Shown here: in pieces, positions 1-18,320 of the stretch | How the letters are laid out: each line of letters begins with the position of its first letter | How positions within the stretch are numbered: the first letter of the stretch is position 1 | IMG/VR virus record: IMGVR_UViG_3300030019_000007 | DNA: 64,000 nt | Source of the DNA: a virus | Lineage: Duplodnaviria > Heunggongvirae > Uroviricota > Caudoviricetes | Reading direction: 5' to 3' (one strand) | Position numbers and translations under genes: made by a program | The notes under the pieces: generated by a model | The model's database searches: none | What the model saw: the letters and a program-made list of their open reading frames with translations, nothing else | Told to the model about the DNA's origin: nothing

Positions 1-3000
1 TGCACTAGCCAAACTAGATTGATTTCTAGCGGCTACTTCTGCACGAGCTGCTGAATCACGTTGAGTATTTTCAGTTTGTTGACCTTGCGTATTTTGTCTC
101 ATTTGAGAATCTGCTTGGTCTCCTTGTTCTTCTAATTGAGAAGCTTGTGAATCAAGTTGTCTTTTCATCATTGCATTTCTAACTGGGTCAGAGCCAGCAA
201 CAAAAGATCCCCTAATTTTATTAGCTCGATCATAATAAGCAGATTTAGTTTGTAAATCTCCTCTTACTGAAGTAGATGTTGAGGCGGCAGGTTGTACTAA
301 GGGAGCTTCTACTCTAGTATCAATGTTTTGAGTAGCTTTATTTGCTAGTAAAGTTCTAAAAAATTCAGCTCCTTGTATTCCTGATTTACTTCCTAAACCT
401 GTTTGCATTTTTGATAAAAATCCAGTGCCTGCATTTTGTGCTCCTGCCTGTGCAACTTTTGTAGAACCTACTGGTGATTGTATAGGTTTTAACCTATTAA
501 AACTATTAGACATTGAAGAAATTGGATTTGCTATACGAGAAGCCCCATCAGGAATAGGTGCAACATATTTTGTAGAACCCATTGCTCTTTGAAACCAAGG
601 TAAATCAACCATTTCTTCAAAAGGATTTCTAGAAGATTCTGGAGTATACGGAGTTCCTAAAACTGCGCCACCATCTGCTTTTAATATTCCTCCTTTAAAT
701 TTCTTAGAAACTTTTTTCCATGAAGGAGTATTATTTTCAGAGAATTTGGGAGTTTTACTCTCCACTTTTTGAGGTTCTACTTTTGGCTCAGTAACTTTTG
801 CTACTATTTTAGGTCTTGTAGGATTTTTAGGGGTTGTAGTAACTTTAGCAACTTTTTTAGCTGGTACAGAAGTAGATGTAGGTATTGTCTCTACCTCTGG
901 AATAGAAATAGTACTTTTTCCTAAATTTGATGTAGTAGGAACAGTTTTACTTACTCTATCTAATATCTCTTGAATTTTTGGAGATAATGGCATTTGAGAA
1001 ATATCTTTAGCTAGTTCATCTGTAGTAGGAAATACTTTCTTTTCTGTAGGCAAAGGAGGTACATTTTTATTACTTCTAGTAATAGTAGGAGTAGATTTAT
1101 CTATAGGAGCTTTAGGTACAATAGGTTCTTTTAAAGGACTACTAGCAGTCATATTTGTAGGAGGAGGGCTTCCTGGAACTCTTTTAGTATTTAGAATCTC
1201 TAAATTTTTAGCTTGTCTAGACCCCATTAATTCATAAATTTCATTTAGTCTATCTTCTTTATTTAATCCCCATCTTAAAGAATTTCTACGTCTTTCTGCT
1301 GCATTTCCTAACATAGAAGTAGCAGTAGATTCTTCTGGAGTTGCAACAACTTCAGTACCTCCACTACCAATTATTTTTTTAGTAAAAGGACTAGTTAAAG
1401 TTCTTCCCATAACTGGTTTCATATTTGCTTGTGCTGCATCTTTTGGTGTATAACTTCCATCTTCTTGTTTTGCGAATGTAGCTGGAACTGCTTCGCCATC
1501 AGCATTAATTACTTTTCCTTGAAATTCAGAAACAGGTTGTGTTTTTACTGCTTTTCCAATAGTTTTCCCAGCGGATGCCATTCTAAGACCACCTACAATC
1601 ATACGTAAATCATTAGTATTTAAGTCAGTAATTGATTTATCTCCTGATACTAAATCTTCTACTAATTCTTTACCTCCAGCAGCCATTCCTGCATAACCAG
1701 TGTATTTTAAAATTTTTCCAATTTTAGGAAGTGCTTTTGCAATTTTCCAACCCTGAGCAGCTTCTCCTAAAAAAGGAACTAAAGTAGCAGCATCAGCTAA
1801 TCCTGATAATGCAGTGCGTCCTATATTTCCAGCAGTCATTTTTCCCTCTCTTAAATAATCTGCATAAGCACTTGCTCCTGTAGATCCAAATCCTAAAGCA
1901 GAAGAGACTATAGAACCACCTATTTCACCTGTAGTTAATCCAATACCTAACCCAGCAATATCAGCGGCCAAAGCGGCTGCATCAAGCTTATCAGAAGTAG
2001 ATAATTCTCCTTCTCCTTCCGCAGCATTGTATAATGTTTTAATAGATGGAGCTCCTTTTAAAGATTTACCCTGTACTCTCTCGACTACTTGAGAAGCAGG
2101 AGATTCAGAGTCTTTAAAAGTTTCAATAGGAGCCTCTGGAGTTTCTGAAGTTTGTTGTGATGCAACATATTTAGCATGATCAGCTAAACGTTTTTGTAAG
2201 TTTTCCTCAAAAGATCCTCCAGATTGCATAAAATCAATAGTTCCTCCTTTTTTTCTCATACCTAAAGCATTGTGAATACACGTATTCACCCAGTCATCTT
2301 TTCCTCCGATACGAGTTTCTTTCTTTACTGTAGGAGTAGGAGTTGAATCTTCTATAAATGGTACATTTTTAAGTGATGGAGCTATATTGGTTAAGGATTC
2401 AGCACCCACAAAAGAGGGTAAGGGCTGATTAATTTGTTTCTTATGTATCCCAGATCCAGTTGGTGGAATATGAATTATTTTACCAGTGGAATCTTTTAAA
2501 AGAATTTCTCCATTATCTCCAGGAATAACTTGTAATCTTGGGGCTTTATTTAATTCAGTAAACAATGCATCGGGTTTAGCACTTTCTAATTCTTCTGGGA
2601 GTCCCACATATTGAATTATTGATTTTCCTGTTTTAGGATCTATAGTATATTCTATATGATAGTTTATTCCATTATGGTTAAAATCTGGTTTCTTTGAAAT
2701 ATTATTATTTCCTACATTATAATAATTAGGATCCGCTATTTGATCATTTTTAATAGCTTCTAAAGATGCTTTATGTGCTTCGTCAGCTACTTTAGCTTCT
2801 TGTGTTTGTAGGGTATTACCAAAGTATTTTTGCATAAATACTCTACCAGGATCACCATATAATCTACCATAAAAATTAGTAAAGAAATCGGAATCCATTT
2901 TCCCTGAAGTTCTTTGTGTTTCTATATCAGAAAGATCTGTATTTTTAAATCTATCATATTTTTTTAAATCAGGATATACTTTATCAAAATAACCTTTAGC

Positions 3001-3676
3001 ATATTTTAATCTATCCTCAGGAGACATAGCTTTAACAACTTCGTCATTATCAGATACTCCACCAGTTTGATCATTAAAGTATCCTTGAAATTGTTCTATA
3101 TCTCCAGCATATTTTTTAGTTTGAGCATCTGCTAAAGCTTTAGCTTCTCCCTCAGTTTTTGCTTTTAAATCATCTGCTGTTTTTTGAACTTTTGCATTTT
3201 CCCCTAAAGCCATACCACCAATTCTGGCACCTAATACGTTATTAAGTCTAGCCATCATATTTTCTTCTTTAGGTTTAATAGCAGATTGTAGACCTTGTCT
3301 AGCTAGGAATCTACCTACACCAGTTCTTTGTGCTACTTCCCCATTTGAATCAAAACCTAAATCAGATTGACCTTTAACATTTGAACCCACTGTAGATCCA
3401 GGAGCTTCATATCCCATAGAAGTCAACATACCTGTCCCAGCTGTATCTAATTTATATTTACCTGTTTTAGCTTGATTTTTAAAAGTAGAATAAGTAGACA
3501 TAAATTTAGGTAAATCAGTTTGACGTAATTCTCCAGATTGTACTAGTTTATTTCCTTCTTCCGCAGCCATAGCATCAATAGTATTTTCATCTAAGTCAAT
3601 ATCTTTACCATCAACATTGAATCGTAATTTTGTACCAGCTTCTGCGTATATTATATTTTTTGGTATTTGTCCCATA
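1..3676 (-). CDS. giant virion protein, partial (over 1225 aa; runs off the window's left edge)
   Basis: Stop-free minus-strand frame from ATG at 3674-3676 (MGQIPKNIIYAEAGTKLRFNVDGKD...) to position 1. It is the third of three consecutive giant ORFs at the end of the structural block. Not in the ORF track because there is no in-window stop. Confidence 0.55.
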
Positions 3677-3694
3677 ATAAATTCTTTTTAATAG

Positions 3695-3730
3695 AAAAAA
3701 AGCAGAGATACTTCCCTGCCTTTTTTTCTT
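3695..3730. terminator. hairpin with flanking A-run and T-run
   Basis: AAAAAAAGCAGAGATACTTCCCTGCCTTTTTTT, sharing the AGAGATAC core with the hairpin at 4397. Confidence 0.35.
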
Positions 3731-3740
3731 GTTTTAATAA

Positions 3741-4220
3741 TTAGCACTTAGCTCCAATTTTCATTTTTCCACCTTTTTTAGCTTCTTCTACAGATTCCTC
3801 TGTTCCTTTAGCGATAGGTTTCTTTCCCTTAAGTTGAATTTTACCAAATTTTCCACCTGATTTATACACAGGTTGTTCTGTTGGGGGTGCTCCTTGTGCT
3901 CCGCCTCCGCCTTGCGCTTGGGAAATTAATTGTAAAAACATTTGTGCTCCTTGTGATAAAGCTGCACAATCTTGTGATTGTAAAGCTGTGGCAAACATTT
4001 GTGCAATTTGCATTAAAGGATCTTGTCCACCACCTTCTGCACCTGCAGGAGCAGGTTGTCCACCTTGGTCTCCACCTGGTGCCCCACCTTGTGATGCGTC
4101 TGGTGCTCCACCCGGAGCGCCTCCTTGTGATGGATCTGGGGCCATTTGCCCACCTTCCTGTAAGTACTTGACTTTGAATTTCATAATAATAAATAGTTTA
4201 ATTAAACATTTTGTTCGCAT
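3741..4220 (-). CDS. Gly/Pro/Ala-rich low-complexity protein (159 aa)
   Basis: ORF track entry with GGAPGGAPDASQGGAPGG repeats and a Lys-rich C-terminus. Lies between giant virion genes, so possibly structural. Confidence 0.5.
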   Translation of the reverse strand: MRTKCLIKLFIIMKFKVKYLQEGGQMAPDPSQGGAPGGAPDASQGGAPGGDQGGQPAPAGAEGGGQDPLMQIAQMFATALQSQDCAALSQGAQMFLQLISQAQGGGGAQGAPPTEQPVYKSGGKFGKIQLKGKKPIAKGTEESVEEAKKGGKMKIGAKC

Positions 4221-4396
4221 ATATACTCCTCAAAAGTAATCAATTTTTTGAAAAATACAGCATTAAAATAAATATAATTTTAGAGGAATTATTAAAAATT
4301 ATACTTATATTTGTAGGATAAACTTAGGGTTTAAACAGAAAGTAGGTATGTCTTTTATGACTCTCTTTAACCAATTTAAAATATCCTTATAAGTTA

Positions 4397-4430
4397 ATAA
4401 GCCAGAGATACTCTGGCTTTCTTTTTTATA
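4397..4430. terminator. hairpin with flanking A-run and T-run
   Basis: AGCCAGAG-ATA-CTCTGGCT followed by TTCTTTTTT. Confidence 0.4.
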
Positions 4431-5358
4431 TCTGTTTTTGTAATAGAAAATGAATTCTTGAAATTAGATCACTCATATCTTCTTTTGTGTAGTCATATTT
4501 TAGTTCATGCAATTCACAATTATTTTTTATACATTTTTCTTTTTTACTTTTATCTCTTTTTTGAGTAAGTTTAAACTTTTCAATTCCTCCCATAAATTCC
4601 ATACTTTCATAATGTTGTATTCCATTATATTCTATAGCTAAATTTAATATAGGAATGTATATATCAAATCTTTGACCTCTCAACCAAGATAATGCAGCTT
4701 CCCATCTTATTTCCAATTCTGGAAAATTAAGTGCTATAGCATCAAATACTTTAGCTTGTGCTTTTAAACTGCATTTTGGACATCCACTTCCTGCTAAATG
4801 AATAGAAGGAGTTTGCATAAAAATACCATGTTTTTTACATGTAATTTCTAAAGGTACTCCTTTACCTATATAAATAGCATTAGTGTAATCATATTTATTA
4901 TTGTGTTTTAATTTTGCCTGTTTAATAAAAACATCTACACTTTTTGTGTATCGTATAGAACGTTCTTCTGCTGCACATTTTGAACAAGTTGACTTTTTAA
5001 ATAAATGATTTCCAGGGTACGGATTAAATATTCCATGTTTAGAACAAATTACTGTAATTGGAGTTTTGTTATTAATATAATTTACTAAAGAATAATCATA
5101 TAAACCCCCATGCACTTTTTTTGCTTTCTCTATCCATTCTTCTGTAGAAGGTTTATTTTTATTAGAGCATTTACTACATCCATATCCTTTACTATGTTCC
5201 TTTGGTACTTGAAAAAATGATCCATGTTCAGGACATATTATTTCTATAGGTAATTTAGCATTAATATAAATTACTTTTGAGTAATCATATTTATTTTTAT
5301 GGGTGTTATTAGCTTTATCAATAAAATGAAGTTTATTTTCTAGAATTGTGTTTTTCAT
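4426..5358 (-). CDS. homing-endonuclease-like protein: three tandem KYDYS/zinc-ribbon repeats plus a C-terminal Vsr/DUF559-like PD-(D/E)xK domain
   Basis: Three ~95-aa repeats (KYDYSxVxYINxKxPIxIxCxxHGxFxQxPxxHxxGxGCxKC). C-terminus ...ELEIRWEAALSWLRGQRFDIYIPILNLAIEYNGIQH matches the DUF559/Vsr-like endonuclease pattern. Confidence 0.55.
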   Translation of the reverse strand: MKNTILENKLHFIDKANNTHKNKYDYSKVIYINAKLPIEIICPEHGSFFQVPKEHSKGYGCSKCSNKNKPSTEEWIEKAKKVHGGLYDYSLVNYINNKTPITVICSKHGIFNPYPGNHLFKKSTCSKCAAEERSIRYTKSVDVFIKQAKLKHNNKYDYTNAIYIGKGVPLEITCKKHGIFMQTPSIHLAGSGCPKCSLKAQAKVFDAIALNFPELEIRWEAALSWLRGQRFDIYIPILNLAIEYNGIQHYESMEFMGGIEKFKLTQKRDKSKKEKCIKNNCELHELKYDYTKEDMSDLISRIHFLLQKQI

Positions 5359-5417
5359 AAATTTGTAATTTTAATAACTACAAATATAATAAAAAATTCT
5401 TTCTCCTCCAAATAATT

Positions 5418-6047
5418 TTAAATAGAAGTATACTCCTGTTTCTGAGTGTCCTGAGTATGAATAAATTGAAAAACTTTTTTTCCTAATTTTTTATAATCAA
5501 TATCTTTTTTTGATTTAACTGCCTTTTTAGCGTAACTAATTAATACTCTGGTATTTTTACGACTAAATATCCTCTCTCCTCCATCCAATTCCATCTGAGT
5601 ATCTCCATTTTCAGCAAGTACATGCATTTTAGGAGTTTCTTTTCCAATTTCTCCACCTCTCTTATCTTCCTGTATATCTTCCTCTTCATCTTCTTCCTCA
5701 TACTCTTCATCTAGATCTGAGAGATCTACATCATCTCCTGAAGAAATTCCAGAATTAGCATTTACTTCCAAAACATAACTAACTCCAGTTTCTGTAATAG
5801 GTGTTTCATCGTCAGGTTTACCAGTAGTTACTGAAATAACTTCTCCGTCTTCATCTAAGAAAATAATATCTAAAGGAATAGGAGTATTTTTCATCCAGAA
5901 TGCCACTTCTTGTGGAGCATCATAGATAAAAAGCATTCCTTCATCTTCTTGTAGATCATCTACATTCATTAGGCCTTGTTCCTTTTCTTCTTCTGTGTAA
6001 GCTACCTCAACATTATATCGTTTATTGTTAACTGTTACTTCTGTCAT
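5418..6047 (-). CDS. DUF192-domain protein with poly-acidic C-terminal tail
   Basis: GMLFIYDAPQEVAFWMKNTPIPLDIIFLDEDGEV matches the DUF192 (COG1430) core motif. Followed by an EEYEEEDEEEDIQED tract. Confidence 0.5.
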   Translation of the reverse strand: MTEVTVNNKRYNVEVAYTEEEKEQGLMNVDDLQEDEGMLFIYDAPQEVAFWMKNTPIPLDIIFLDEDGEVISVTTGKPDDETPITETGVSYVLEVNANSGISSGDDVDLSDLDEEYEEEDEEEDIQEDKRGGEIGKETPKMHVLAENGDTQMELDGGERIFSRKNTRVLISYAKKAVKSKKDIDYKKLGKKVFQFIHTQDTQKQEYTSI

Positions 6048-7060
6048 TGTATATTTTTTAATAATTTACTTCTAGAATCTTTTGTATTTTTTAATATCTC
6101 TTTAGCAAGAATTTTACCTGCCTCAACCATACTTTCTTCTGTGTTTTCCTTTGACAATTCTTCTAATTTCTTAGTTAACTGTAAATGAAAGATAATTTCA
6201 TCACGTTCTAATTCAGCTGTTTGATCTCCTAAATCTCCACCTTCTCCCATAGCAAGTACAGGAATTCCTTTTCTAGTAATATCAGATTCAGTAATATCTT
6301 CCATATGATTTAATTCTTTATGAAGTTTACCATCGACTATTACATTTTGAGGGGACTCAATAGTTCCTCCTGCTTTAAATTTTCTAAATTCTTTTAGAAA
6401 AGTTGTATTTAAACCTTTTTTACCAACACGAACTTGATTTTGATCTGGATTATTGAAATCCAACATATTTTTATTTGATAGAGTTTGAGAGGCATTTCCT
6501 AAAGCAGCAAATTGATCTTTAGATTGATTTAAGATACCAGAAGTTTTAACTTGCATTGCTTTTAATTTTGCAGTTTGTGCATCTAAATCTTTTCTTCCCC
6601 CAAATAATTTAGCGAATCCTCCAGCATTTCTTTGAGTATTAGTATCAGTCATTTGATCTCCAATATTAGATGCTAATCCAGTGTATCCAGAAGAAGTTCC
6701 TACATTTCCTGCTAAACCTATTTTATCTGCTTTTTTACCAAGTTTTCCACCTAACCAATCTAATCCAGTTAAACTAGCAGAAAGAGCAGTACCTACCCCA
6801 GGTATAGCTCCAATACCTGCAGTAACTGCTCCAAATCCTGCACCAATAGTGTTCATTTTCTTTTGGTAAGCAGTTTTACCTCCAGTATTTCCCATAGCAT
6901 AAGACATAGCCCCTGCTCCAAGAGTATTTATACCATTATCTATTAAAGAAGATGTCTTAGCTCCTTTTGGAGTACCATCTCCAAAGATATTGCCTATACT
7001 GGCAATATCTGAGAGTTTAAATTGGTACGATTGTGGGTTTGATGTTTGTGTATCAGCCAT
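6044..7060 (-). CDS. Gly-rich virion protein (338 aa)
   Basis: ORF track. Gly/Ala/Thr-rich N-half. 4-nt start/stop overlap with the downstream gene. Confidence 0.5.
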   Translation of the reverse strand: MADTQTSNPQSYQFKLSDIASIGNIFGDGTPKGAKTSSLIDNGINTLGAGAMSYAMGNTGGKTAYQKKMNTIGAGFGAVTAGIGAIPGVGTALSASLTGLDWLGGKLGKKADKIGLAGNVGTSSGYTGLASNIGDQMTDTNTQRNAGGFAKLFGGRKDLDAQTAKLKAMQVKTSGILNQSKDQFAALGNASQTLSNKNMLDFNNPDQNQVRVGKKGLNTTFLKEFRKFKAGGTIESPQNVIVDGKLHKELNHMEDITESDITRKGIPVLAMGEGGDLGDQTAELERDEIIFHLQLTKKLEELSKENTEESMVEAGKILAKEILKNTKDSRSKLLKNIQ

Positions 7061-7072
7061 AAATTTAATTTA

Positions 7073-10000
7073 TTATGCGTAACTTAATGTGTATAATGTT
7101 TGAAGAGCTGTAATAATTGCTAATTGTTCACCTGAGTAAATAACTCTCACAGAACAATACTTATCTCTTATCTTTGATTCTACTATTTGATTGTTACTTT
7201 TCTTTTTAACTCTTATAGGTTGTATTTGAACTTCCCACATATCTTCTTTATAATAAATATTTCCTTTTCGTTGTCCTACTTTTTGTACATTTTTAGCTTC
7301 TTGAAAAGAAAGAATTCTATATTCTTTAGTCTTATCATAAACAGTTTGTTGTGAAGGAGGAAGTAATTCATAAGTATCTTTTATTCTACCACCAATCAAT
7401 CCTTCATCACTATATGTTGGAAAATCATCTGTGAAATCATAAGCATCACCTACAATTTCAAATTGAAATGATTCAGGTTCTGCTTTATTAGAGATAATCT
7501 TAAGATTATCAAACATTTTATGTATTCCTAATTCATTACCATTAACTACAAATTGAAATTCAAATTTATGCTGTTCACCATACCATAATGCAGGTTTAAA
7601 AGCACTTTCATGTTCAAAAATTCCAGATTGTCCATGTTTCCATAAATTAGTTGTAGTATTAGCAAGATATTTTGCAATAGTTAAATCTAATAGATTTACA
7701 ATTTGTATTCGTTGTCCTTCTGTAAGATAAACAGTTGGGTGATCTACATCCGTACCTACGCGTAATGGAGGACAATTTGTAAGATTATTAAAAATATTAT
7801 ATCTTAAATTGTTTAATGTTTCAATACTAGGTCTTATATAAAGAGAATCTTGAAATTGGTCTGTTCCTGATAATCCGGTTTGTGATGTTCCCAATACTAC
7901 ATCTAAATCTATTAAAAATGCAAAATAAATTCGACTTAAAACTTGAAGTATTCCATTAAATTTATCTGTAAGTGATAAAGCAGAGAAACTATCGGGATTT
8001 ATAGATATATAACTAGCAGTACCATCTACTAAATTCTTTGTAATCTTAAAAAATTGATTATCATATACAATAGGATCTGCTATTGAAGATAAAGCATAAT
8101 CATAAGTAGATACTTTACTATACAATTCTTGACCTTGCAAAGTTAAGAAATATTCTCTAGTATTCAATAGAGAAGCAGTATAAGTTACATTAGCTATAGA
8201 GAAATTCCATCCTTCTCTTGCCATAGAATCTGCAAGTTCTTGAGAAGCAACTGCTCCAACTGTAAATTTAATCTTTAAATTAGGTTTTAATAAAGTAGTT
8301 TGAATATCAGTAATAGTATCTCCATTTAATTTATTCAAAATAAATTCATCTCCACTAGAAATCTCATTATCATTATTTGCGGAACGATAAAATGATAATT
8401 TACTATTACTTGAGAGTGATAAAAATGCATTATTTTTATCATAAACTACTAATACTCTACCAGTTGTTGGATAAAAATTCCATGTATGAGTATATCCTTG
8501 TGTAGGTAATCCATCCTCATACATACGGTGTAAACTTGGGCCATCAGAAAATAATACTGGTGGAGTTACTAGAACAGGATAAGGAGATGATAAGGTTCCA
8601 GTTATTGGAACCCCGGCAACTGTAGGAAGTGTTTCCTCTAATTTACTCTCATAAAATAATGAGAGATAATCTCCCTCAGTTAAATAGTTTTCTTCTGGAG
8701 AATTAATATAAATACTTCCTAATCCATCAGCACTATCAATAGATTTAGCAATCATTGAGGTTACTTTACAAGTTCCTCTAGAGAAAGTAAAAAATGTATT
8801 GCTGATATTTTCTGAAAATGCTGGAACCCATGAAAATTTTGTTACCCAATTGTTTAATTGTTCATTATAACATAAATTCCATACTTTGTCTGGATCATTA
8901 AATGTCTGGTCGTAAAAGGTAAACATAATATCTTTTTTAAAGACATTAAAATGTGTTACTACATTACGAAGGCCAATCATAGGAGTTTTATCATACACAG
9001 TAAATGATATATTATCATTTAAGAATTTCTGTACTCTAAAGTCAGAGATAATATCAAATTTCTTTCCATCAGTTCTCCAGATTTTTTTGCTTACTGTATC
9101 TACTCCATAAATATAATTATCAGAAGTTCTAATAGAATCTGGCCATGCACTACCTATTCCGTGAGATACCATCATAGGTTTCTCTGGAAGTACTCCAGCA
9201 TTACGTAAAAATATATTTTCACCTTCAGATTGTCCTGCCATAGTTCTCTCATTAATAGGAAGAACACCTACACCACCCTCAAATATAACAATTAAATTTC
9301 CAAACCAGGAAATTACTTTAGTAATAGTGCCAAATTCAATAGTATAATCTTGATAATTAAGCCCTTCAAATATTCTAAATCCATTTTTAAATGCATCATT
9401 AACATGAGTTTCTGAATACATAACTCTATTAGTATAGTCATTTTTTATTGCAGGGATATCTGGAATAACATAATACTCTTTATCAGAAGTAGTAGAATTA
9501 TATCCAACATTCATAGCTCCAGAATCAGCGATTTTAGCTGATCCTGCAAGACTTCTACTATATAAAGGAGTAAATGATCTAGGTCTTCCTGCCAGAGCAT
9601 ATTCAGAGGTATATGTAGGATCCACACATCTAAAAGCAAAGTTAATATCACTACAAAATTTAAATGTGGCCCAATATCCTAGTCTAACTGCATTCACATC
9701 GCCTCTATTAATTTTTTCAAGATTTTCTTTATTTAACTCCAAAGTAGCAGTATCATTTGATCTATACCCTTTAAAATTATCCAAAGTATTAACATCAACA
9801 ATGATATCATTTATTGGTGCTTCAGGATCTTGAAAATTTCTTAACATTCTAATAGAAACTTGATTTATAAAGCAATCACCTCTATAGACATCTAAAGATT
9901 TATAGGCACTAGTACTAGATTGTTCTAAATTAAATCTTTCCCAATCATATCTATCTGATATAGCCATAAATGGAGAGTTATCATTATACCGTATATTAAA

Positions 10001-12424
10001 GTAATCTTTCACATTATTTTCCGAATATCCTAATGTTCTGATATTATAAAACCCACCAGAAGTTGCTGTATTTCCAACTACTCCAACAAATGGAGCAAAC
10101 ATTCCTCTAATTAAAGAGTTCTGTTTTTTACTTTGGGAAATATCGTCAATTATAATAGGAGTAATACTGTCAACTAATTGTAGTTCTTTCTTTAAAAATG
10201 CTGAAAAATGCCAAGGTTCCTCTGCAATACCGGCACGAGAAGAGAAATAAGTAGAATCTAAACTTGTAGAAGCTACATCTTCCGGAACTAATACTAATTT
10301 AACTTTTTGAGATAACTTTATAGTATTATGGTCATACTGATTTAAATAAAAATGAGTAGCATAATCATCAAGTTCTTCCAATGTTTTAGAAGAAGGTAAA
10401 TTATCTGGAAAAAAATCTCTAAGAAAACCTGAGGTATGTCCTTTAAAATTAGCTCCAGTTAAAGTAAAATCAGATCCACTAAATATTTGAACTAAATATT
10501 CAGAATTTAACAGAACATCTGGGACAAGTAAAGCTCCTCCAGAATTTATATTTGATTTAAAAGGTAATAACTCTGAAAAAGCATCATTTACAAATGAAAA
10601 GTAACTTTCTCCTTTCGAAGGTAACTTATAATAATGTTCTTCTCCTAAGGCTTGAGCTATGAATGAAGTATTTGATTGTATGCCTAATGCAGAATTAATA
10701 CTTCCATATGGTGTATTAGGATAAGTACCTGCTACTGGTTTATAAATATGAACTCCTTGAATAGTATGAACTAAATTTCCATTTATAGTTTCAGGAAGTA
10801 AAGGTAGTCCAGACATTTTGTCATGTCCTATGGAAAATGCCTGACATAAAATCGTAGGGATTCTTTTTTGACGAACTATAAAGAATCCTTTAGTATATTT
10901 TTGTAATTCCATTTGTACATCATTTGGAATAATAATCTTAAATGATATAGGAATAGTAGTATTTGTGTTGATTTGTGAAGTAATAGAAGCTCCACCAATT
11001 TTAATAACACCTTTAGTATTTTCTAATTTATAAGCAGAACCTACTATTAAATTATCCTCTTCTTGTATAAATACTCTATTCTTTTTATTATCATACAATG
11101 CTTGTGGAGTATAGACATTATAATAAGGATCTGTCATATTAATTGAGGGGGTAGGACTATCTGTAAAGTCTTTACCTCTAATACTATATGGGTCAGAAAG
11201 AGCAAAGTCATTCATAATATAGACGATAGCTAATCTATAAAGTTCTTCATCCCAATATCCTGTGTAAGAATATACATTATTACTATCAAAATATGCAACT
11301 TTTTTATCACTTGAAATAAAATTCTGTGATAAAACACCTATATTTTGAGAAGAATCTTGTTGAGGAAAAGGTAAAACTCTTAAAGATAAATCTTTTAATT
11401 CTCTATAAGGAACAGTAGTCTTATGAATATTTGCGAGAAATAATCTATTCTGCGCTTGAGCTACTGTTTTATTTCTATCAATAATATTATACTGAACATT
11501 TATTTTATCCTTAGTAATCGGAGAAGTAGCTTCATATCCAGTAATAGTGAGGTTAATAGTAGTTGACTTAATAGAGAATTTAGTCTCAATTTTAGCAAAC
11601 TCTGTAATTTCTTTTTCTGTGTAATCTGAGGTAGATCTAGAGTAGTATACACTTAAAAAGTTGTAATTACTATCTAAGTTACTTAAATTAAATATTACTG
11701 ATTTGCCAGAATTTTCTTGACCCATTCCTCCTCTTATTGATTGTGGATCATTTAAGTTACCTACATGGCAACTTACTATACTACTTTCTGTAATAATATC
11801 AGTCTCATTTCCATCAGCATCTACAAGTCTAAAATAAAAAACATAATTTCCAACTTTTAATCTTCCTCCATTATCAAGTCCTACTAACTCAAGTTTAGGT
11901 ATTCTGTTGATAGTTTTATATAAACGAGATTGTGGATCTATCCTATCATCATCATAAATGTTTGTATCTTTATTTCCTTCTCTATCAACTATATAAAATC
12001 TTCTTCCTTCAGTAACACTAAATCTAGAGTTGATTAATCGAGGTGGAGTATTATTATCTGAGAGTATTAAGTTAACAGTTCCATCGTATGAGGGTTGTAT
12101 TTCTATTTCAACTGGATAATTAATAGAAAAATTTAAATCCTTAGAAGTAAAATCCACTAATTCATTTGGTAAAATACCCGGAATAAGATCTTTATTTCCA
12201 GAGTATCTTACATTTTTAAAAGGTCTAAATACATAAGATAGATTTCCTTCTGTTGGATTTTTATTTAATAGAACATTAAACTCAAATTTAAAAGATTCAG
12301 ACAAGACTATTCCTGAGGAGAGTAATCTTGCTGTAAAATCTTGTAATAGAGTTAAATAATTTCCAATATTTGGATCGATGGTAGGAAGTTCTAATCCCGT
12401 ACTTGTATAATAAAGTTTTATCAT
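7073..12424 (-). CDS. giant virion protein (1783 aa), candidate ejected/cargo or tail protein
   Basis: Uninterrupted 5.35-kb ORF, co-directional and tightly packed with the structural block. No catalytic motif recognised by eye. Confidence 0.7.
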   Translation of the reverse strand: MIKLYYTSTGLELPTIDPNIGNYLTLLQDFTARLLSSGIVLSESFKFEFNVLLNKNPTEGNLSYVFRPFKNVRYSGNKDLIPGILPNELVDFTSKDLNFSINYPVEIEIQPSYDGTVNLILSDNNTPPRLINSRFSVTEGRRFYIVDREGNKDTNIYDDDRIDPQSRLYKTINRIPKLELVGLDNGGRLKVGNYVFYFRLVDADGNETDIITESSIVSCHVGNLNDPQSIRGGMGQENSGKSVIFNLSNLDSNYNFLSVYYSRSTSDYTEKEITEFAKIETKFSIKSTTINLTITGYEATSPITKDKINVQYNIIDRNKTVAQAQNRLFLANIHKTTVPYRELKDLSLRVLPFPQQDSSQNIGVLSQNFISSDKKVAYFDSNNVYSYTGYWDEELYRLAIVYIMNDFALSDPYSIRGKDFTDSPTPSINMTDPYYNVYTPQALYDNKKNRVFIQEEDNLIVGSAYKLENTKGVIKIGGASITSQINTNTTIPISFKIIIPNDVQMELQKYTKGFFIVRQKRIPTILCQAFSIGHDKMSGLPLLPETINGNLVHTIQGVHIYKPVAGTYPNTPYGSINSALGIQSNTSFIAQALGEEHYYKLPSKGESYFSFVNDAFSELLPFKSNINSGGALLVPDVLLNSEYLVQIFSGSDFTLTGANFKGHTSGFLRDFFPDNLPSSKTLEELDDYATHFYLNQYDHNTIKLSQKVKLVLVPEDVASTSLDSTYFSSRAGIAEEPWHFSAFLKKELQLVDSITPIIIDDISQSKKQNSLIRGMFAPFVGVVGNTATSGGFYNIRTLGYSENNVKDYFNIRYNDNSPFMAISDRYDWERFNLEQSSTSAYKSLDVYRGDCFINQVSIRMLRNFQDPEAPINDIIVDVNTLDNFKGYRSNDTATLELNKENLEKINRGDVNAVRLGYWATFKFCSDINFAFRCVDPTYTSEYALAGRPRSFTPLYSRSLAGSAKIADSGAMNVGYNSTTSDKEYYVIPDIPAIKNDYTNRVMYSETHVNDAFKNGFRIFEGLNYQDYTIEFGTITKVISWFGNLIVIFEGGVGVLPINERTMAGQSEGENIFLRNAGVLPEKPMMVSHGIGSAWPDSIRTSDNYIYGVDTVSKKIWRTDGKKFDIISDFRVQKFLNDNISFTVYDKTPMIGLRNVVTHFNVFKKDIMFTFYDQTFNDPDKVWNLCYNEQLNNWVTKFSWVPAFSENISNTFFTFSRGTCKVTSMIAKSIDSADGLGSIYINSPEENYLTEGDYLSLFYESKLEETLPTVAGVPITGTLSSPYPVLVTPPVLFSDGPSLHRMYEDGLPTQGYTHTWNFYPTTGRVLVVYDKNNAFLSLSSNSKLSFYRSANNDNEISSGDEFILNKLNGDTITDIQTTLLKPNLKIKFTVGAVASQELADSMAREGWNFSIANVTYTASLLNTREYFLTLQGQELYSKVSTYDYALSSIADPIVYDNQFFKITKNLVDGTASYISINPDSFSALSLTDKFNGILQVLSRIYFAFLIDLDVVLGTSQTGLSGTDQFQDSLYIRPSIETLNNLRYNIFNNLTNCPPLRVGTDVDHPTVYLTEGQRIQIVNLLDLTIAKYLANTTTNLWKHGQSGIFEHESAFKPALWYGEQHKFEFQFVVNGNELGIHKMFDNLKIISNKAEPESFQFEIVGDAYDFTDDFPTYSDEGLIGGRIKDTYELLPPSQQTVYDKTKEYRILSFQEAKNVQKVGQRKGNIYYKEDMWEVQIQPIRVKKKSNNQIVESKIRDKYCSVRVIYSGEQLAIITALQTLYTLSYA

Positions 12425-12437
12425 ATTTTTATTTTAA

Positions 12438-15400
12438 TTAAAATGAACGTATTGCTCTTAGATGGTAAGTATTATTTTTAAGATATGTTCCATTACCTCC
12501 ATCATTTAGATTTACTGCATAGGCTTTATCCCAACCAGATTCTGTTGAACTCCAGTAAACGTTTGTGGGATATCCAAGAACATTTCTATGTGCATACATT
12601 TGTAACATCTCATTTAAACTAGGTAAATACCAATCACTGTAATTATCAATGACATAATTATTTATTGTTTGTATAGCATGACCTTTTGAGCTACTAAGAG
12701 ACATTAAAGCACTATTAGTTTTACCAGTTCCAATTGCTGAACCACTAGCTCCTACAGTAAGAGGGTCATAATCACTTTTAAGTCCCCAAACATTTGGAGA
12801 TTGGTCTTTTAAAGATGCTATTAATCCATGTTGTACATTAGTATCAAATCCAATATCTCCTAATTGCAAAATATAGAAGATTACTCCTCCGCCAAATAAC
12901 ATACCTATAGTATAAGTAACTCCATCACGTATATCTTTTATACTTGGGGGATTCAAACAAAAAGTATCAATTCCATAAACTGGTGTATCTATAGTTGTTA
13001 ATCTTCCTCCTAGTAATGCTGGACTAAATCTAGGTATTTTTAAATCAGAATTATTAATATTACTTATGGCCAAACTATCTGTTAAATTTACAAATTCACT
13101 ACTTGCAGTAGTAATACTATTATCGTAAATTACTTTTACACTTGGTGTTACTCCAGTAGAAGAAACAAGATATGAAGAGGATTCCATAGTAGTTAAAGCG
13201 TTTGTAAACGTATCTCTTACTCCAGTAGGAGTTGAGGCACTTAGAACTATATTTATAGGATTTATTAATGGTTTACAGGATTCTTTACTAGAGAAATTCC
13301 AAGGAATATTTTTAGCTCCATCCGGAAACATAGAGGAATCCACAAAATTATATAATATTTTAGCTAAAGGATATACACCTTTCCAATTATCAATAATAAG
13401 TTTTACATTATTTATATTAAAAGGAGAGAGTGTTGAAGATCCAAAACAACTTTTAGTAATATACTTAAGTGTTCTATCTACAGATTGATCTAATAATGTA
13501 TAAGTTATTGAATTGCCTACTAATGCTAAAGTATTTACTCCAGAGGTTACATAATTAATTAAATCTTTATCTGCATATTGTGCTAAAATAACTTCACTAT
13601 ATTTTTGGTTAACAAGTAAATCTGTTAAATAAGTATTAGTTTGTTTAAATCCTATATATTTATTGTCAATTACATCTTGATGATGTAGAGGGTAATCTCC
13701 CGAGAACCATAAATTATTATAAGTAGTTAATAATGAAACTGCATCATTATATTTAATTTCTACATTAACTGGAATATCAGTCTTATAAGATTGATGAATA
13801 GTTTGCGGAATAGTATTTCCTGGACTTGAGTAGTTACATCCAATTACAAATCTACTACTATTTAAATGATTATCTCCAAGAGCTGAATTAAAAGTACCTA
13901 AAGTGCCATCATCAATGTTAGGAATAACTCCTCCAATATCTCTAATAGTTGTGAGGATTATTTGATTATTACCAGGTTCTAGCAATTCCCATTCTAATTT
14001 AAGATTCCCCCATAAATATGTTAAGAACTGAAAATGTTCTAAGGGAGTTCCTGATAGTGGAGTGAATAAACTTAAACTAAAGTCAACATCATCTGTCCCC
14101 ATTAAATCAAAAGAACTATAAGAACTTAAATCTCCAGTATTCTCAATGGATACTCTGGTGGATTTCACTACTTGAGAATGGGTCCAGGAGAAGTATTTAA
14201 AGGTTTTATTTCTTGCATAACTCCTAGTATAACTTTTAAATAAAGATGGGGCTATGGTAGGTCTCTGTGAAGATAATGCTATATTTGAGATAGTAAATGT
14301 ATCTAAAGCACTTGTAGATGTTAAATCTGCCTGTAGTGCAGCATTAGTACTTATATCACTATTAGGATTTCCAGAAAGCCAAGTATATTGTGAAGTTACT
14401 TGATCGGAAGTAAAATTCATAATATGAGAAAACTCATTTGTTGCAGAAGTATGCTCTGTAGATTTTAAGGTTAATTTCTTCTTAAATAAAGTATTATCAA
14501 TTTCTCCAAATAATAAAGGTTTGTTACTTGAACTTATAGGTAGTATCTTAATAGTACCAGTTTGAGAAGGAACTGTTAAAGTACAATCGCTAAATATAGC
14601 AAATTTAAAATCTTTTGCTCCATCTATAGCCGTGGATAAACTAGTAGTTAAGTATTTTTTATTTAGAGAGAAATAATCAGATGACATAGAAATATCTCCT
14701 CCTGTAATTCCTAGTTTAGTAGAAATTTCAGAAAAAGTATGGTATCCTATATTTTTTAAATTATCCTCTGATATATCATAAAATTCTCCAGTATATGCAT
14801 TTCTATAATATTTTTTAACACCTGTCCAATCAGATCTTTTAATAGTACTTCCTAATACAGATGCCTCACAAAATACTGGACCACCATATAACCTATATGC
14901 TTCTGTTAGAGAAGGAGAAGGATGACCTGTAATAGGTAAATAATTAGGATGATTATCACCAATCGTTATAGTACCAGAAGGTTGTATTGGAGTTAAAGTT
15001 TTATCTAAGATTCCTGTACCAGTATAATTTAAATCATACTTATCAAGAATTTCCATACCTTTCACAATATCAATCATACCATAATTTCTCATGTTGCTAT
15101 TTTTAAATTTAGCAATAGGAAGAGTATATAAAAGCTGAAAAATATTATAACTGATACCAGATTCAACTCCAAAGATTCTAACTAGATAACAATGATCTTT
15201 TCTTAAAGCTGCCCCATGCATGATTTTATTTGGAGATATTAGTTCAACACTTCCTGTGTAATTATCAATATCAGAAGTAGCTAATCCTCCTTTAAAACTT
15301 CCGTTGAAAATAGTGTCTCTATTAAATGTAGCCAGGGGTACTGTAATTGTAGCTTTTTGATCTATTAATGGAATATTTTCTTTTAAAAGACTAACATTAC

Positions 15401-16640
15401 TCCAAAAATCATAAAATTCTACATTTACTGTGGGCATAGAAGTCTGACCTTTATATAAATAATTAAATGTTACAGTCAAAATATCACCTGTGACATCATA
15501 TACAAAATTATCATGTGCATTTAAACCTAAAGGTAAATCACTAATCACATAATATTTAGTCTTAGCAAATTGAGTAAGTCTTCTTCCAAATTGGTCTATA
15601 GGAGTACATGTTATTGTTAATACTGTACCTACTTCAAAACTAACTGGAACTTCCCCGGAAGTTAATTTAGAAATCATTACATCTGAGTTTCCAATGTATG
15701 TTTGGTAGTCAAAAAATTTGTTTGCTACAGTTTCTCCATTTGAACTTATTGTCTTTATTTCTATAGTTTTAACTCTTATAGCTGAATTTGACACTATGTT
15801 ATCAGAAGTAAAAGTTACTTTAGCTTTTAAAATACCACCTGTATTATCCCCAACTAAACCAAAATCAAAACTTTGGATGGTTGAGGGAGACATAACTACA
15901 GTAATTACTCCTTTAGAGTCGCCATTATAAACTATATCCTTTCCATTATTTTCTCCTGTGATTCCAGTAGGTTCTGGAGAATAACTAACAGTAGAATAAT
16001 CTTCTGAATAGTTAGGTAATAGATTAAGAGGAATACTTGTTAAACCTCCATCAGTATTCATTGTGTAGTACTTAAAATCAAAGTATCCTTCACTACCAGT
16101 TCCATAATTATTAATAAACTTACTAAAAATTTGATTGGAGTCATTCCAGGTGTCAACACCAATTAAAGTAATAGCTATTTTAAATTTATCTCCGGGCGAT
16201 ATAAATGCATTTAATAGATTCATACCATGGTTAATTGAGTCTGATTGCATTAATTCAATACCTCCTTGTGAGGTTTCTGCAGAAATATCAGAAATGCTTT
16301 TAAGTGATTTGTTATCTCCATCAGCTATTGTTATATATCTTTGTGGAGAAGGTAAACTTCCTACACTAGTCTCTTTTGTAAATGGATTATGAGCTACAAT
16401 ATACATAATTCCATCAAATTCTTTTACTCCTAATGGAATAAAACCTTGAGGTAATGCATCTTCAGTTCCAGTAGTTTTGACTTTAACATTTCCTAATTCA
16501 GTTTGTAGATTAAATTCATCTCCATTATAAGTAATGATGGTCCCGTTTAAACAATCTGTTAGTACATCTTTTGGAGTAGATAATGGATTTAAATCCATAT
16601 TGAGTCCTTTTCCAAAATTATTTTGTGTTATCTTCTTCAT
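12438..16640 (-). CDS. giant virion protein (1400 aa), candidate cargo or tail-fibre-like protein
   Basis: Uninterrupted 4.2-kb ORF, Ser/Thr/Asn-rich with a beta-rich look. Sits in the structural block. Confidence 0.7.
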   Translation of the reverse strand: MKKITQNNFGKGLNMDLNPLSTPKDVLTDCLNGTIITYNGDEFNLQTELGNVKVKTTGTEDALPQGFIPLGVKEFDGIMYIVAHNPFTKETSVGSLPSPQRYITIADGDNKSLKSISDISAETSQGGIELMQSDSINHGMNLLNAFISPGDKFKIAITLIGVDTWNDSNQIFSKFINNYGTGSEGYFDFKYYTMNTDGGLTSIPLNLLPNYSEDYSTVSYSPEPTGITGENNGKDIVYNGDSKGVITVVMSPSTIQSFDFGLVGDNTGGILKAKVTFTSDNIVSNSAIRVKTIEIKTISSNGETVANKFFDYQTYIGNSDVMISKLTSGEVPVSFEVGTVLTITCTPIDQFGRRLTQFAKTKYYVISDLPLGLNAHDNFVYDVTGDILTVTFNYLYKGQTSMPTVNVEFYDFWSNVSLLKENIPLIDQKATITVPLATFNRDTIFNGSFKGGLATSDIDNYTGSVELISPNKIMHGAALRKDHCYLVRIFGVESGISYNIFQLLYTLPIAKFKNSNMRNYGMIDIVKGMEILDKYDLNYTGTGILDKTLTPIQPSGTITIGDNHPNYLPITGHPSPSLTEAYRLYGGPVFCEASVLGSTIKRSDWTGVKKYYRNAYTGEFYDISEDNLKNIGYHTFSEISTKLGITGGDISMSSDYFSLNKKYLTTSLSTAIDGAKDFKFAIFSDCTLTVPSQTGTIKILPISSSNKPLLFGEIDNTLFKKKLTLKSTEHTSATNEFSHIMNFTSDQVTSQYTWLSGNPNSDISTNAALQADLTSTSALDTFTISNIALSSQRPTIAPSLFKSYTRSYARNKTFKYFSWTHSQVVKSTRVSIENTGDLSSYSSFDLMGTDDVDFSLSLFTPLSGTPLEHFQFLTYLWGNLKLEWELLEPGNNQIILTTIRDIGGVIPNIDDGTLGTFNSALGDNHLNSSRFVIGCNYSSPGNTIPQTIHQSYKTDIPVNVEIKYNDAVSLLTTYNNLWFSGDYPLHHQDVIDNKYIGFKQTNTYLTDLLVNQKYSEVILAQYADKDLINYVTSGVNTLALVGNSITYTLLDQSVDRTLKYITKSCFGSSTLSPFNINNVKLIIDNWKGVYPLAKILYNFVDSSMFPDGAKNIPWNFSSKESCKPLINPINIVLSASTPTGVRDTFTNALTTMESSSYLVSSTGVTPSVKVIYDNSITTASSEFVNLTDSLAISNINNSDLKIPRFSPALLGGRLTTIDTPVYGIDTFCLNPPSIKDIRDGVTYTIGMLFGGGVIFYILQLGDIGFDTNVQHGLIASLKDQSPNVWGLKSDYDPLTVGASGSAIGTGKTNSALMSLSSSKGHAIQTINNYVIDNYSDWYLPSLNEMLQMYAHRNVLGYPTNVYWSSTESGWDKAYAVNLNDGGNGTYLKNNTYHLRAIRSF

Positions 16641-16642: not shown

Positions 16643-17188
16643 TTAAGTACTTTTAATTTTATTTCTCCTGTTTAACCAGACAGTTCCTTCTTCTGAGAGT
16701 TCACAATCTTCTTTTTTAATCTCTCGTTTTTCCATCCATAAGATTTCCTTTTCTGGAGTAGTATATCCTAACTTAGTTCTATATATAAACTTAATATCTT
16801 TTCTGATAACACTCTCTTTGAATAACTTATAGAGATTAACTTCAGGAAGTATGCTATTTTCTAAGAACTCTTCATTCTCCAATTGAGTAAGTCCTATATA
16901 ATGCCAACCATCCCAATTTTCTCCTTTTTCTTTGAACATTTTTCTACGTTTTGAATGTTCTTTAACTTTACTCTCAACCCATTGTGCTTCAGAATCTTTT
17001 TTACTTGCTCCTATAAATGTAAAAAAATGTGCATCTTTTAAAAAAACATCTTCTCCAGTTTTAGTGTAATGATAAATTCTCTTTAATCCATAATCTGCAA
17101 GAACATCTATTGCAGTTTCTTCTATATCAGGAAATTCTTTATAAAGCCTTTGAGCAAAATCCTCATATTTTCTTTGTGCCATTTTCAA
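16643..17188 (-). CDS. hypothetical protein (181 aa)
   Basis: ORF track. Overlaps the upstream ORF by 4 nt, suggesting translational coupling. Confidence 0.5.
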   Translation of the reverse strand: MKMAQRKYEDFAQRLYKEFPDIEETAIDVLADYGLKRIYHYTKTGEDVFLKDAHFFTFIGASKKDSEAQWVESKVKEHSKRRKMFKEKGENWDGWHYIGLTQLENEEFLENSILPEVNLYKLFKESVIRKDIKFIYRTKLGYTTPEKEILWMEKREIKKEDCELSEEGTVWLNRRNKIKST

Positions 17189-17634
17189 CAGTATTTAAAT
17201 CCTTTATTTGAGATCTCTGTGGTTCTCTCTTTCATCTCATCATTAAGTATGATGTCCTTTTCTTGAAATCTTTCTCGATAGTAATATTTAAATACAGGTA
17301 AATAAATAGTAAAATTAGTTTGTATAAAATCTACTTTATTAAATTTACCGGAATGATATGCCTTATAGAATTTATCTTCTTGCAACTTCTTCCAAGTAAA
17401 CATTGCTATTGTCTTAGTAGGTAAATGAAAAGTATTACCATTCTCAACCATATCTTCCACAATCATTTTCATCAAAGTTAAGAATATTTTAGCAATTAAG
17501 TCATTTTTACACCCATATTTATAAAGAGCCTTCATCTTTTTCTTATCCCCAGACTCTTTTTTAAATTTAAACTTCTTTAAATCATACACATGAAATAAAT
17601 CTCCTTGTGTAAAACTATGTGTTCCCCTAATCAT
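17185..17634 (-). CDS. hypothetical protein (149 aa)
   Basis: ORF track. Start/stop overlaps with both neighbours. Confidence 0.5.
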   Translation of the reverse strand: MIRGTHSFTQGDLFHVYDLKKFKFKKESGDKKKMKALYKYGCKNDLIAKIFLTLMKMIVEDMVENGNTFHLPTKTIAMFTWKKLQEDKFYKAYHSGKFNKVDFIQTNFTIYLPVFKYYYRERFQEKDIILNDEMKERTTEISNKGFKYC

Positions 17635-18320
17635 TATTTCAATGGTTTAAATGACTTACCAAATCGTTTACGATCCCAACTTCCTTGTACGTCAAGCATC
17701 TCATCCATAAAGTTTTGTGTAAGAGTAATAGGAGTACGTGCATCGTCACAAGTTCTTTTCCACTCAATTTGAATACTTTGTGACATCTGTATTAAATTTG
17801 CATTTTGAGTAATCATTCCTTTTTTACGTAGTTGTATAAAAGCACAATAATTAGTAATAGCATCTAATTCTTTAAAATTTAATAAAGGAAGACCATCTTC
17901 ATCTGAGATAATTCCTTTGTAAACTATTACAATCTGCGCAGTTGAATCATTTGGAAAATAAAGAGTATTTCCAACTAATTCATACTTTACAAAAGCACCT
18001 CTTTGATAAAAAGGAGATTGATTAGTTTTTCTACTTTCTACATAGGATTCTACAGTTAATGCAGAGTAATCTTCTCTAGTAATATTCTCAGGTTTATAAA
18101 AATCCTCAGTAGTAGAATGTACTGAGTCAATGATATCTACATTACATGGAAGATCTATTTTACCGTCAACTATATTAGTAATATATCTATAAAGTTTGGT
18201 ATTCTTATTACCTATATGATTCCAAGCATGCCAGGCAAGAGATTCAAATTCATCAGGATTTATAGTTATACCATAAATATCTTTTAAATGAGTAATTGCT
18301 GTGTAAAAAGGGTAGTTCAT
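17634..18320 (-). CDS. hypothetical virion-associated protein (228 aa)
   Basis: ORF track. Operon context only. Confidence 0.5.
   Translation of the reverse strand: MNYPFYTAITHLKDIYGITINPDEFESLAWHAWNHIGNKNTKLYRYITNIVDGKIDLPCNVDIIDSVHSTTEDFYKPENITREDYSALTVESYVESRKTNQSPFYQRGAFVKYELVGNTLYFPNDSTAQIVIVYKGIISDEDGLPLLNFKELDAITNYCAFIQLRKKGMITQNANLIQMSQSIQIEWKRTCDDARTPITLTQNFMDEMLDVQGSWDRKRFGKSFKPLK

Follow-up and report, generated by a model that had tools for sequence, protein, structure and literature searches.

A probable two-gene muzzle at the tail tip of a distant crAss-like phage

The distal end of the virion gene block in the tailed-phage record IMGVR_UViG_3300030019_000007 (IMG/VR; Caudoviricetes) contains three giant open reading frames (ORFs), and the question raised by this locus is what these giants encode. 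The whole stretch analysed, hereafter called the window, is 64 kb long; the distal end of the virion block occupies positions 1-16640, with the giants all on the minus strand. In a first-pass annotation the three ORFs had been described as consecutive and interpreted as ejected cargo proteins of the crAss-like type, including a virion-packaged RNA polymerase. The observation was partly confirmed and its interpretation partly supported, but the polymerase claim was left without support. With a probability of roughly 0.68, the locus is read here as a muzzle, the gate at the tail tip, that is split over a fibre gene and a gate-body gene and is followed by a block of internal proteins, with no polymerase in the window.

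The three large ORFs were recovered on the minus strand at 12438-16640 (1400 amino acids, aa), at 7073-12424 (1783 aa) and from position 3675 (MGQIPKNII...) to the left window end, where the third giant exits after 1225 visible codons; their positions and lengths agree with the first-pass annotation. Each is a genuine gene, as 111 homologues were found for the 1400-aa protein and 66 for the third giant, and the 1783-aa protein scores above the gathering threshold of Pfam family crAss_MUZ. They are not consecutive, as four genes (338, 209, 310 and 159 aa) separate the 1783-aa ORF from the third giant. The full length of the latter, 1387 aa (L002, 10546-14709), was obtained from environmental parent metagenome contigs of 148-167 kb (JGI Ga0311351_10000023, JGI Ga0311364_10000078 and ENA k141_816881 of ERZ27250347), on which genes of 602 aa and then 2789 aa come after it. 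A scan of IMG/VR for more of this genome yielded a fragment of 7.6 kb.

The 1783-aa protein matched PF25731 crAss_MUZ with an E value of 1e-28 (100.5 bits; cut-off 27). The muzzle is an external structural protein of the tail tip, and gp44 of crAss001 forms a hexameric gate at the distal tail end (Bayfield 2023, PMC10172136). Residues 172-260 of the 1783-aa protein align to residues 165-246 of gp44, its immunoglobulin-like domain IG1 (hhalign probability 93%, E = 2.4e-7), and the protein is 37-38% identical to the muzzles of MT835470 and MT835492. Its N-terminal 170 and 340 residues did not match PF25731 even at E<=10, and the muzzle body of MT835470 begins matching the family at model position 108. 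The muzzle body has 55-95 residues ahead of its first Pfam-aligned position, and in the 1783-aa protein an insertion of ~340 residues (about 1250-1585) is present relative to fused relatives. Judged by these matches, the 1783-aa protein is a muzzle that lacks about the first 100 positions of the model, and as a protein of the external tail tip it was removed from the list of cargo candidates. The string VDADGNETD (residues 201-209), considered in the first-pass annotation as the nearest approach to a catalytic motif, lies inside the IG1-like segment opposite YNKYGKETN of gp44 and was rejected.

A counterpart of the missing part was found on the preceding gene. The fused muzzle P0078 (1522 aa, with PF25731 and PF25729) aligns through its residues 3-97 to residues 2-100 of the 1400-aa protein (55% identity) and through its residues 99-1330 and 1309-1522 to residues 56-1248 and 1585-1783 of the 1783-aa protein (33-38% identity). 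The break thus falls at P0078 residue 97/99 with neither gap nor overlap, so that the two window proteins tile one single-gene muzzle. The N-terminal domain of the 1400-aa protein (N-domain; 16341-16640, minus strand), taken here as the detached muzzle N-terminus, is the most conserved part of its family, with 17 invariant columns. When three isolated N-domain sequences were compared with 24,736 Pfam families, PF25731 was the only family found (positions 2-86, E = 0.009-0.17); no match to gp44 or a nozzle was obtained with the N-domain profile against PDB sequences. Among the 111 homologues of the 1400-aa protein, 11 are full-length and most others have only the first ~100 residues in common, most aligning over just 7-39% of the query. 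Fibre-type proteins of 892-1420 aa without PF25731 account for 98 of them, and the remaining 13 are single-gene muzzles of ~1520 aa with PF25731 and PF25729.

The same arrangement recurs in the six split loci that were inspected (the window, L001 from MT835470, L010, L014, L015 and L016). In each of them the N-domain gene directly adjoins the gene in muzzle position, with a gap or overlap of 0-13 nucleotides (nt). A PF25731 match was present on the latter gene in five loci; in L014 the contig ends within this gene. The neighbours common to all six are ring protein 1, two small genes, fibre, muzzle, post-muzzle protein and a DUF192 protein, and the fused locus L009 (Logan SRR33880976_8791) has these neighbours, too, and no fibre gene. 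In the window, 13 nt (TTAAAATAAAAAT, 12425-12437) lie between the stop codon of the 1400-aa gene and the ATG of the muzzle body, and in relatives the fibre and muzzle genes abut or overlap (0-4 nt), which suggests translational coupling. Fused muzzles form one tight group (81-88% identity in the pairs compared), whereas split forms are far more diverse and numerous, with ~100 protein clusters of up to 1974 member sequences. The occurrence of fused P0078-type proteins alongside adjacent split genes argues, in the manner of a Rosetta stone, for a physical interaction between N-domain and muzzle body. No description of a split muzzle was found in the accessible portion of the open literature on the muzzle protein; as far as this portion goes, it is an undescribed variant of a known structure.

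Two side observations concern these loci. The pair of small genes that separates ring protein 1 from fibre and muzzle (149 aa, 17185-17634; 181 aa, 16643-17188; both minus strand) is kept clade-wide at 144-198 aa, has no counterpart between crAss001 gp43 and gp44, and gave no family match. In L009, called genes (e.g. 14572-15669) contain in-frame standard stop codons and the translation of the locus mismatches the query, which suggests stop-codon reassignment as in some crAss-like groups (PMC7886860).

Beyond the N-domain, the 1400-aa protein has the features of a fibre. An AlphaFold2 model of residues 1-1200 (mean predicted local distance difference test score, pLDDT, 62) contains confident beta-rich blocks at residues 150-560, 680-810 and 1010-1160. 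Foldseek comparison of the model with PDB yielded matches to tandem fibronectin type III (FN3) domains and to macroglobulin-type MG domains of complement C3 (54 at E<=1e-3); neither a nozzle nor a polymerase was among the folds matched. At the C-terminus, PF07603 Lcl_C was detected at residues 1321-1398 (E = 4e-8; 34.0 bits, cut-off 34.9) and phrog_4245 at residues 1239-1400 (E = 9e-15), and the lectin-like end was matched by PDB entry 8q4e (HbP1; E = 0.0017). The N-domain, when the chain was folded alone by AlphaFold2, was of low confidence, which fits a segment that folds only against a partner. The combination of an invariant N-domain, a diverging body, sandwiches of the immunoglobulin (Ig)/FN3 type and a lectin-like end just under the Pfam cut-off identifies the 1400-aa protein as a predicted fibre, with a conserved anchor, a variable beta-rich shaft as seen in the model (12681-16340, minus strand) and a lectin-like end. 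The Lcl_C/DUF1566-like lectin-type domain at this end (12447-12680, minus strand) is likely to be the receptor-binding tip. A role as cargo does not agree with a beta-sandwich fibre that has a muzzle-type N-terminus and a lectin-like C-terminus. The protein was also considered as a full-length muzzle paralogue; this was rejected, as no profile-profile match extends past residue ~100 and the model consists of beta-sandwiches, not of a propeller. Giants with ordinary tail-protein folds only had been named in the first-pass annotation as evidence against cargo, and this applies to the 1400-aa and 1783-aa proteins but not to the third giant.

In the reading preferred here, the muzzle is divided over two neighbouring genes that are probably translated together, with the part from model position ~108 onwards supplied by the 1783-aa protein. 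In the mechanism proposed, the detached N-domain would dock on the muzzle body in trans, at the place where single-gene muzzles have it in cis. Fibre arms, presumably one for each subunit of the muzzle, would thereby be attached to the tail tip; they may bind a host surface glycan, and glycan binding could couple to gate opening. The homologies, the clean split point and its recurrence are observed, whereas docking in trans, its stoichiometry, receptor binding and ejection of the third giant are inferred. That a large and widespread clade possesses such a two-gene, trans-complemented muzzle, in which a ~100-residue piece of the nozzle-type fold sits on a lectin-tipped fibre of 1000-1400 residues, the fibre arm is integral to the gate and receptor engagement could pull it and so lead to ejection, is put forward as a tentative possibility that we do not yet expect to hold.

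The crAss-like context on which this reading depends was examined in the upstream genes. The major capsid protein (474 aa, 21867-23291) matched PF23898 Crass_capsid (E = 7.8e-15; 54.7 bits, cut-off 27). The match of tail ring protein 1 (228 aa, 17634-18320, minus strand) to PF24228 CrAss_Ring_1 was marginal (28.6 bits, cut-off 27), and the protein also weakly matched gp43/g072. In tblastn, TerL (34392-36515) found 149 phage records, mainly crAss-like phages and relatives of these (Flavobacterium, Cellulophaga, Azobacteroides), at 23-29% identity, a grouping of tblastn matches and not of a tree. A multi-ring tail barrel with a muzzle is thus indicated by a marginal (PF24228) and a clear (PF25731) match, and the order of ring protein, muzzle and post-muzzle proteins parallels crAss001 gp43-gp50 and phi14:2 g072-g065. 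An IHF/HU gene in the structural block is a genomic signature of crAss phages (Yutin 2021, PMC7886860); Bac_DNA_binding had zero matches at E<=0.01 in 27 virion-block ORFs, a set that left out the 149-aa ORF at 17185-17634 and ORFs of less than 150 aa. No nucleotide-level match to the phage collection was found by megablast with 25 kb. The phage falls outside the families that the collection represents. On sequence grounds, the window belongs to a distant member of the crAss-like assemblage, a podophage. The virion block had rightly been called crAss-like. The upstream gene order was broadly as described before, the positions of TerL, lysozyme (GH108, 30813-31343), portal (P22-type, weak match, 28561-30816), capsid and ring protein all being found.

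The third giant (residues 1-1225 of 1387 at 1-3675, minus strand) is of a different kind. A HMMER search of 1.84 billion cluster representatives returned its 66 relatives, most of them 1150-1700 aa long and with residues ~550-715 in common; a word-indexed search returned the protein itself and one relative. It is syntenic with a 1554-aa gene of MT835470, and it had no Pfam, PHROG or PDB sequence match. Single-sequence searches of PDB with the three giants and the 2967-aa giant of MT835470 gave matches at chance level only. In the AlphaFold2 model (mean pLDDT 63), a confidently folded N-terminal domain (residues 15-405) is followed by helical hairpins (545-711, pLDDT 70-86), a disordered Pro/Lys-rich stretch (750-1085) and a C-terminal coiled coil; no significant Foldseek match was obtained (best E = 0.37 in PDB and 0.028 in BFVD). 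The hairpins correspond to a Gly/Ala-rich hydrophobic helical region (1543-2043, minus strand) that includes the invariant residues G595, D628, P634 and K644 and, as modelled, is a putative membrane-inserting region. The best profile alignments of the third giant were confined to this region and fell on the transmembrane region of gp45 and the N-terminal hydrophobic regions of gp47 and g067, all non-significant (E = 0.016-0.6). By analogy of position and composition, the third giant is a plausible ejected (cargo) protein. This part of the earlier cargo interpretation is therefore kept as a possibility, but no match to a cargo Pfam family, to an RNA polymerase-associated protein of crAss001 or phi14:2 or to a double-psi beta-barrel was found for the protein. 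The cargo label of the post-muzzle block derives from synteny with crAss001 and phi14:2, from composition and from predicted architecture, and not from homology. The genes of the 338-aa, DUF192, Lys-rich and 1387-aa proteins stand where crAss001 has its cargo genes; the proteins would most likely be internal ones that are ejected before the DNA, with the Gly/Ala-rich hairpins of the third giant contributing to a trans-envelope channel.

The smaller post-muzzle genes, all on the minus strand, were analysed individually. The 338-aa protein (6044-7060) has a hydrophobic glycine-zipper segment at residues 72-90 that resembles gp45 residues 140-158. Its family comprises w338, L011-347, r568 and L010-771, and residues 295-344 of L010-771 are 50% identical to residues 370-423 of crAss001 gp45, cargo protein C1 (pairwise E = 2e-8). 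It is regarded as a candidate analogue of cargo protein 1. The 209-aa protein (5418-6047) matched PF02643 (DUF192) with E = 2e-27, and a DUF192 gene directly follows the post-muzzle protein in L001, L009, L010, L011, L015 and L016. In some relatives a longer protein (330-524 aa) has DUF192 as its C-terminal domain, and no DUF192 match was found at the corresponding position of crAss001. Its comparison as a cargo protein 2 homologue gave no support. The 310-aa protein (4426-5358) matched the HNH endonuclease family phrog_559 (E = 9e-58), and the gene is absent at this place in L011, a 43%-identical relative from the metagenome scan; it is a mobile insertion that interrupts the post-muzzle block and lies outside the virion module. 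The small Lys-rich protein of 159 aa (3741-4220) had no family match in Pfam and PHROG scans, but small proteins at its position in L009, L010 and L011 share its C-terminal KKGGK motif.

A related pattern, [KR][KRFALMQ]x(0-3)GGx[ILVM], occurs in every post-muzzle protein; examples are KKFKGGILKADGG, RKFKAGGTIESP, QKLQIGGVVYKP and AKKGGKMKIGAKC. Minus-strand sites in the window lie at 6385, 3779, 2256, 705 and 681, and further sites at 37739 and 37772 (ORF 37287-38006), at 44341 (ORF 42994-44985) and at the N-terminus of the L002 protein at 14710-16518. Six sites were counted against 0.93 expected, and none of 2000 shuffles reached six, for a pattern that was defined post hoc. In several relatives the motif often stands at the extreme N- or C-terminus, and it is also found at the C-terminus of crAss001 gp45. 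As a weaker lead, the core K-x-GG-x-[IV] might be a signal for cargo sorting or for Gly-Gly protease processing.

The motif of the crAss polymerase is DFD[IV]D (Drobysheva et al., bioRxiv 10.1101/2020.03.07.982082), and it was present in the g066 and gp50 sequences used here. The large ORFs of the window and of L001, L002 and L011 were all without D[FY]D[IV]D, as were the 2725 of 2789 residues of the giant further downstream that were covered; the negative result extends over ~10.5 kb beyond the left window end. The first-pass annotation had proposed comparing the giants with gp47, gp49, gp50, phi14:2 gp66 and double-psi beta-barrel domains. In this comparison, extended to g065, g066 and g067, the third giant showed no similarity in sequence (BLASTP, phmmer), profile (hhalign) or fold, and no double-psi beta-barrel was detected in it (AlphaFold2 with Foldseek; family profile against PDB). 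Two motif candidates were rejected: GDDDVDK of the 2789-aa giant lies in a non-conserved indel, and DIDLD of the third giant (residues 25-29) has a non-conserved triad and forms part of a beta-hairpin in a domain without polymerase-like fold.

The 2789-aa giant (L002 16535-20480; L018 15990-24164) corresponds to the 2967-aa homologue of MT835470 (L001 34756-43659) and has a superfamily 1 (SF1) helicase-like AAA_30/AAA_19 domain and hydrophobic segments near the N-terminus. A word-indexed search with it returned five relatives but not the protein itself, and no relatives were found outside the clade. In MT835470 (L013, 1-50000) the 2967-aa giant is followed by minus-strand ORFs of 2281 aa (43005-49847), 991 aa (38993-41965), 809 aa (36577-39003) and 1529 aa (32006-36592). 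The 991-aa ORF contains GQSDYDLD and has weak colinear BLAST matches to post-catalytic parts of gp50 (1621-1819) and g066 (1602-1662), and the 1529-aa ORF is weakly like gp49. These polymerase-like traces, two to four genes beyond the 2967-aa giant, possibly represent a fragmented virion polymerase block. The window encodes no RNA polymerase, and any RNA polymerase gene of this phage would lie beyond it by at least two giant genes. With no motif, no similarity and no double-psi beta-barrel fold, the claim of a virion RNA polymerase among the giants is not supported.

Several results weigh against the reading of the locus as a split muzzle followed by internal proteins. The N-domain matches to PF25731 are all below threshold, and hhalign aligned the N-domain with gp44 itself over only seven columns. 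A faint resemblance to the second half of the N-domain was seen in residues 1-55 of the 1783-aa protein, so that partial duplication and decay are possible, in which case the body may be self-sufficient. The Lcl_C match of the 1400-aa protein stays 0.9 bits under the Pfam cut-off. In the downstream block, the profile link of the 338-aa protein to gp45 is weak (E = 0.054). PF25725 and PF25712 had zero matches at E<=0.01 in the seven proteins of 1-16640, with crAss001 gp45 and gp46 as controls matching these families at 2e-66 and 6e-219, and the profile of the third giant gave nothing significant against crAss001 gp45-gp50 and phi14:2 g065-g070. If the 1400-aa protein were an independent fibre, its N-domain would be a generic docking module for the last ring or for the two small proteins of 149 and 181 aa and no missing piece of the muzzle fold, and the fused muzzles would merely share this adaptor. 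Such adaptor domains are common at the N-termini of phage fibres; docking of the crAss001 fibre gp22, for example, is through residues 1-26 at its N-terminus (PMC10172136). The two additional small genes located after ring protein 1 and before the N-domain gene, which crAss001 lacks, and the 55-95 residues that the muzzle body retains before its first Pfam-aligned position would also agree with it. It does not, however, account for an N-domain that is colinear with positions 2-86 of the muzzle model when the body starts at ~108, for the contiguous break in the fused protein, or for the adjacency of the two genes in all six split loci, and an independent fibre is considered unlikely.

As for the downstream genes, the third giant might not be ejected at all but be an assembly or scaffolding factor, a retained tape-measure-like tail protein or a non-virion protein. 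It has no homology to known cargo proteins, and long disordered and coiled-coil regions are typical of scaffolds and tape-measure proteins, too. Yet it lies in the late virion operon after the muzzle, where the packaged giants of crAss001 and phi14:2 sit, its conserved hydrophobic Gly/Ala-rich hairpins are like the membrane-active segments of gp45, gp47 and g067, a podovirus tail lacks a tape measure, and 1387 aa is far above the size of known scaffolds; a non-cargo role is therefore rather doubtful. Far less probable is the original proposal that all three giants are ejected cargo and that one of them is, or contributes to, a virion-packaged two-barrel RNA polymerase. In its favour, the crAss-like context holds, the tail genes of crAss001 and phi14:2 are indeed followed by genes of giant virion proteins, the polymerase among them (PMC10172136), and the third giant is an unassigned member of that block. 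Against this stand the muzzle and fibre assignments of the other two giants, the lack of the catalytic motif in the large ORFs of the four loci and in the part of the 2789-aa giant that was covered, where GDDDVDK is an indel feature, the dissimilarity of the third giant to all six crAss001 and phi14:2 giants compared, and the position of the polymerase-like traces of MT835470, which appear only beyond its 2967-aa giant. The proposal is regarded as very improbable.

The split-muzzle reading can be placed among known systems. Relative to gp44 of crAss001 (PF25731) and g071 of phi14:2, the 1783-aa protein is colinear through IG1 and the C-terminal propeller blades, and its gene likewise stands between those of ring protein 1 and the post-muzzle proteins; it differs from gp44 in that the first ~100 model positions are on the preceding gene, and identity is ~24% over short stretches. 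P0078-type muzzles (~1520 aa) stand in the same gene neighbourhood (ring protein 1, two small genes, muzzle, post-muzzle protein, DUF192 protein, giants) but are single polypeptides without a fibre gene, whereas here a sandwich/lectin body of ~1300 residues and a stop/start junction separate the two parts. The ring-joining domain and seven-bladed propeller of the crAss muzzle resemble the T7 nozzle (PMC10172136), and T7 gp12 and P22 gp10 likewise form the distal gate of podovirus tails; neither the crass domain nor the Ig-like domains nor the split is a feature of T7. The post-muzzle block is like C1 gp45 (PF25725), C2 gp46 (PF25712) and gp47/gp49/gp50 of crAss001 and g067/g066/g065 of phi14:2 in position, size and fast divergence. 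It also shares with them helical or disordered predictions, alpha-helical ones being reported for the crAss001 cargo proteins (PMC10172136), and Gly-rich hydrophobic segments (gp45 140-158, gp47 106-124, g067 91-190). In contrast, the 338-aa and 1387-aa proteins lack a Pfam, BLAST, profile or fold match to these proteins and the DFDxD motif, and crAss001 has no counterpart to the positions of the DUF192 and 602-aa proteins. Closest in the phage collection are MT835470 and MT835492, unannotated human-gut entries of GenBank ('Bacteriophage sp.'), with identities of 53-55% for the capsid, 41% for TerL (MT835470), 37-38% for the muzzle and 45% for ring protein 1. Both share the split muzzle and the order of the downstream genes, but no nucleotide similarity was found, their size is 117-122 kb versus 148-167 kb, and the fibre body is unrelated past residue ~160.

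Elsewhere in the window, no paralogy inside the virion block was found by BLASTP, promoter and terminator scans gave counts at or under the shuffle expectation, and ARAGORN found zero tRNA or tmRNA genes in 1-64000. A divergent transcription point lies at ~42555-42994, with large genes on the minus strand to its left and on the plus strand to its right; the sign of the GC skew flips there too, with a cumulative minimum at ~38-42 kb, and the site is possibly an origin of replication. The plus-strand ORFs at 43-64 kb are mostly without Pfam match, exceptions being GIY-YIG domains and an SPFH/Band 7 protein (63080-63943). Four homing-endonuclease-type genes are present in the 64 kb (4426-5358 and 38636-39481, minus strand; 56772-57476 and 59807-60433, plus strand), of HNH, LAGLIDADG-like and, in two cases, GIY-YIG type.

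For the annotation of this clade, the locus contains a trap: the first two giants after the ring proteins are tail-tip proteins and neither cargo nor polymerase, and the true internal-protein block starts after fibre and muzzle, where current family models miss it. The natural split between fibre and gate body offers a genetic handle on what part of the muzzle attachment requires, and on how receptor binding may be coupled to gate opening. If the proposed arrangement is true, the receptor-binding arm would be a structural element of the gate for DNA and proteins and could trigger ejection directly.

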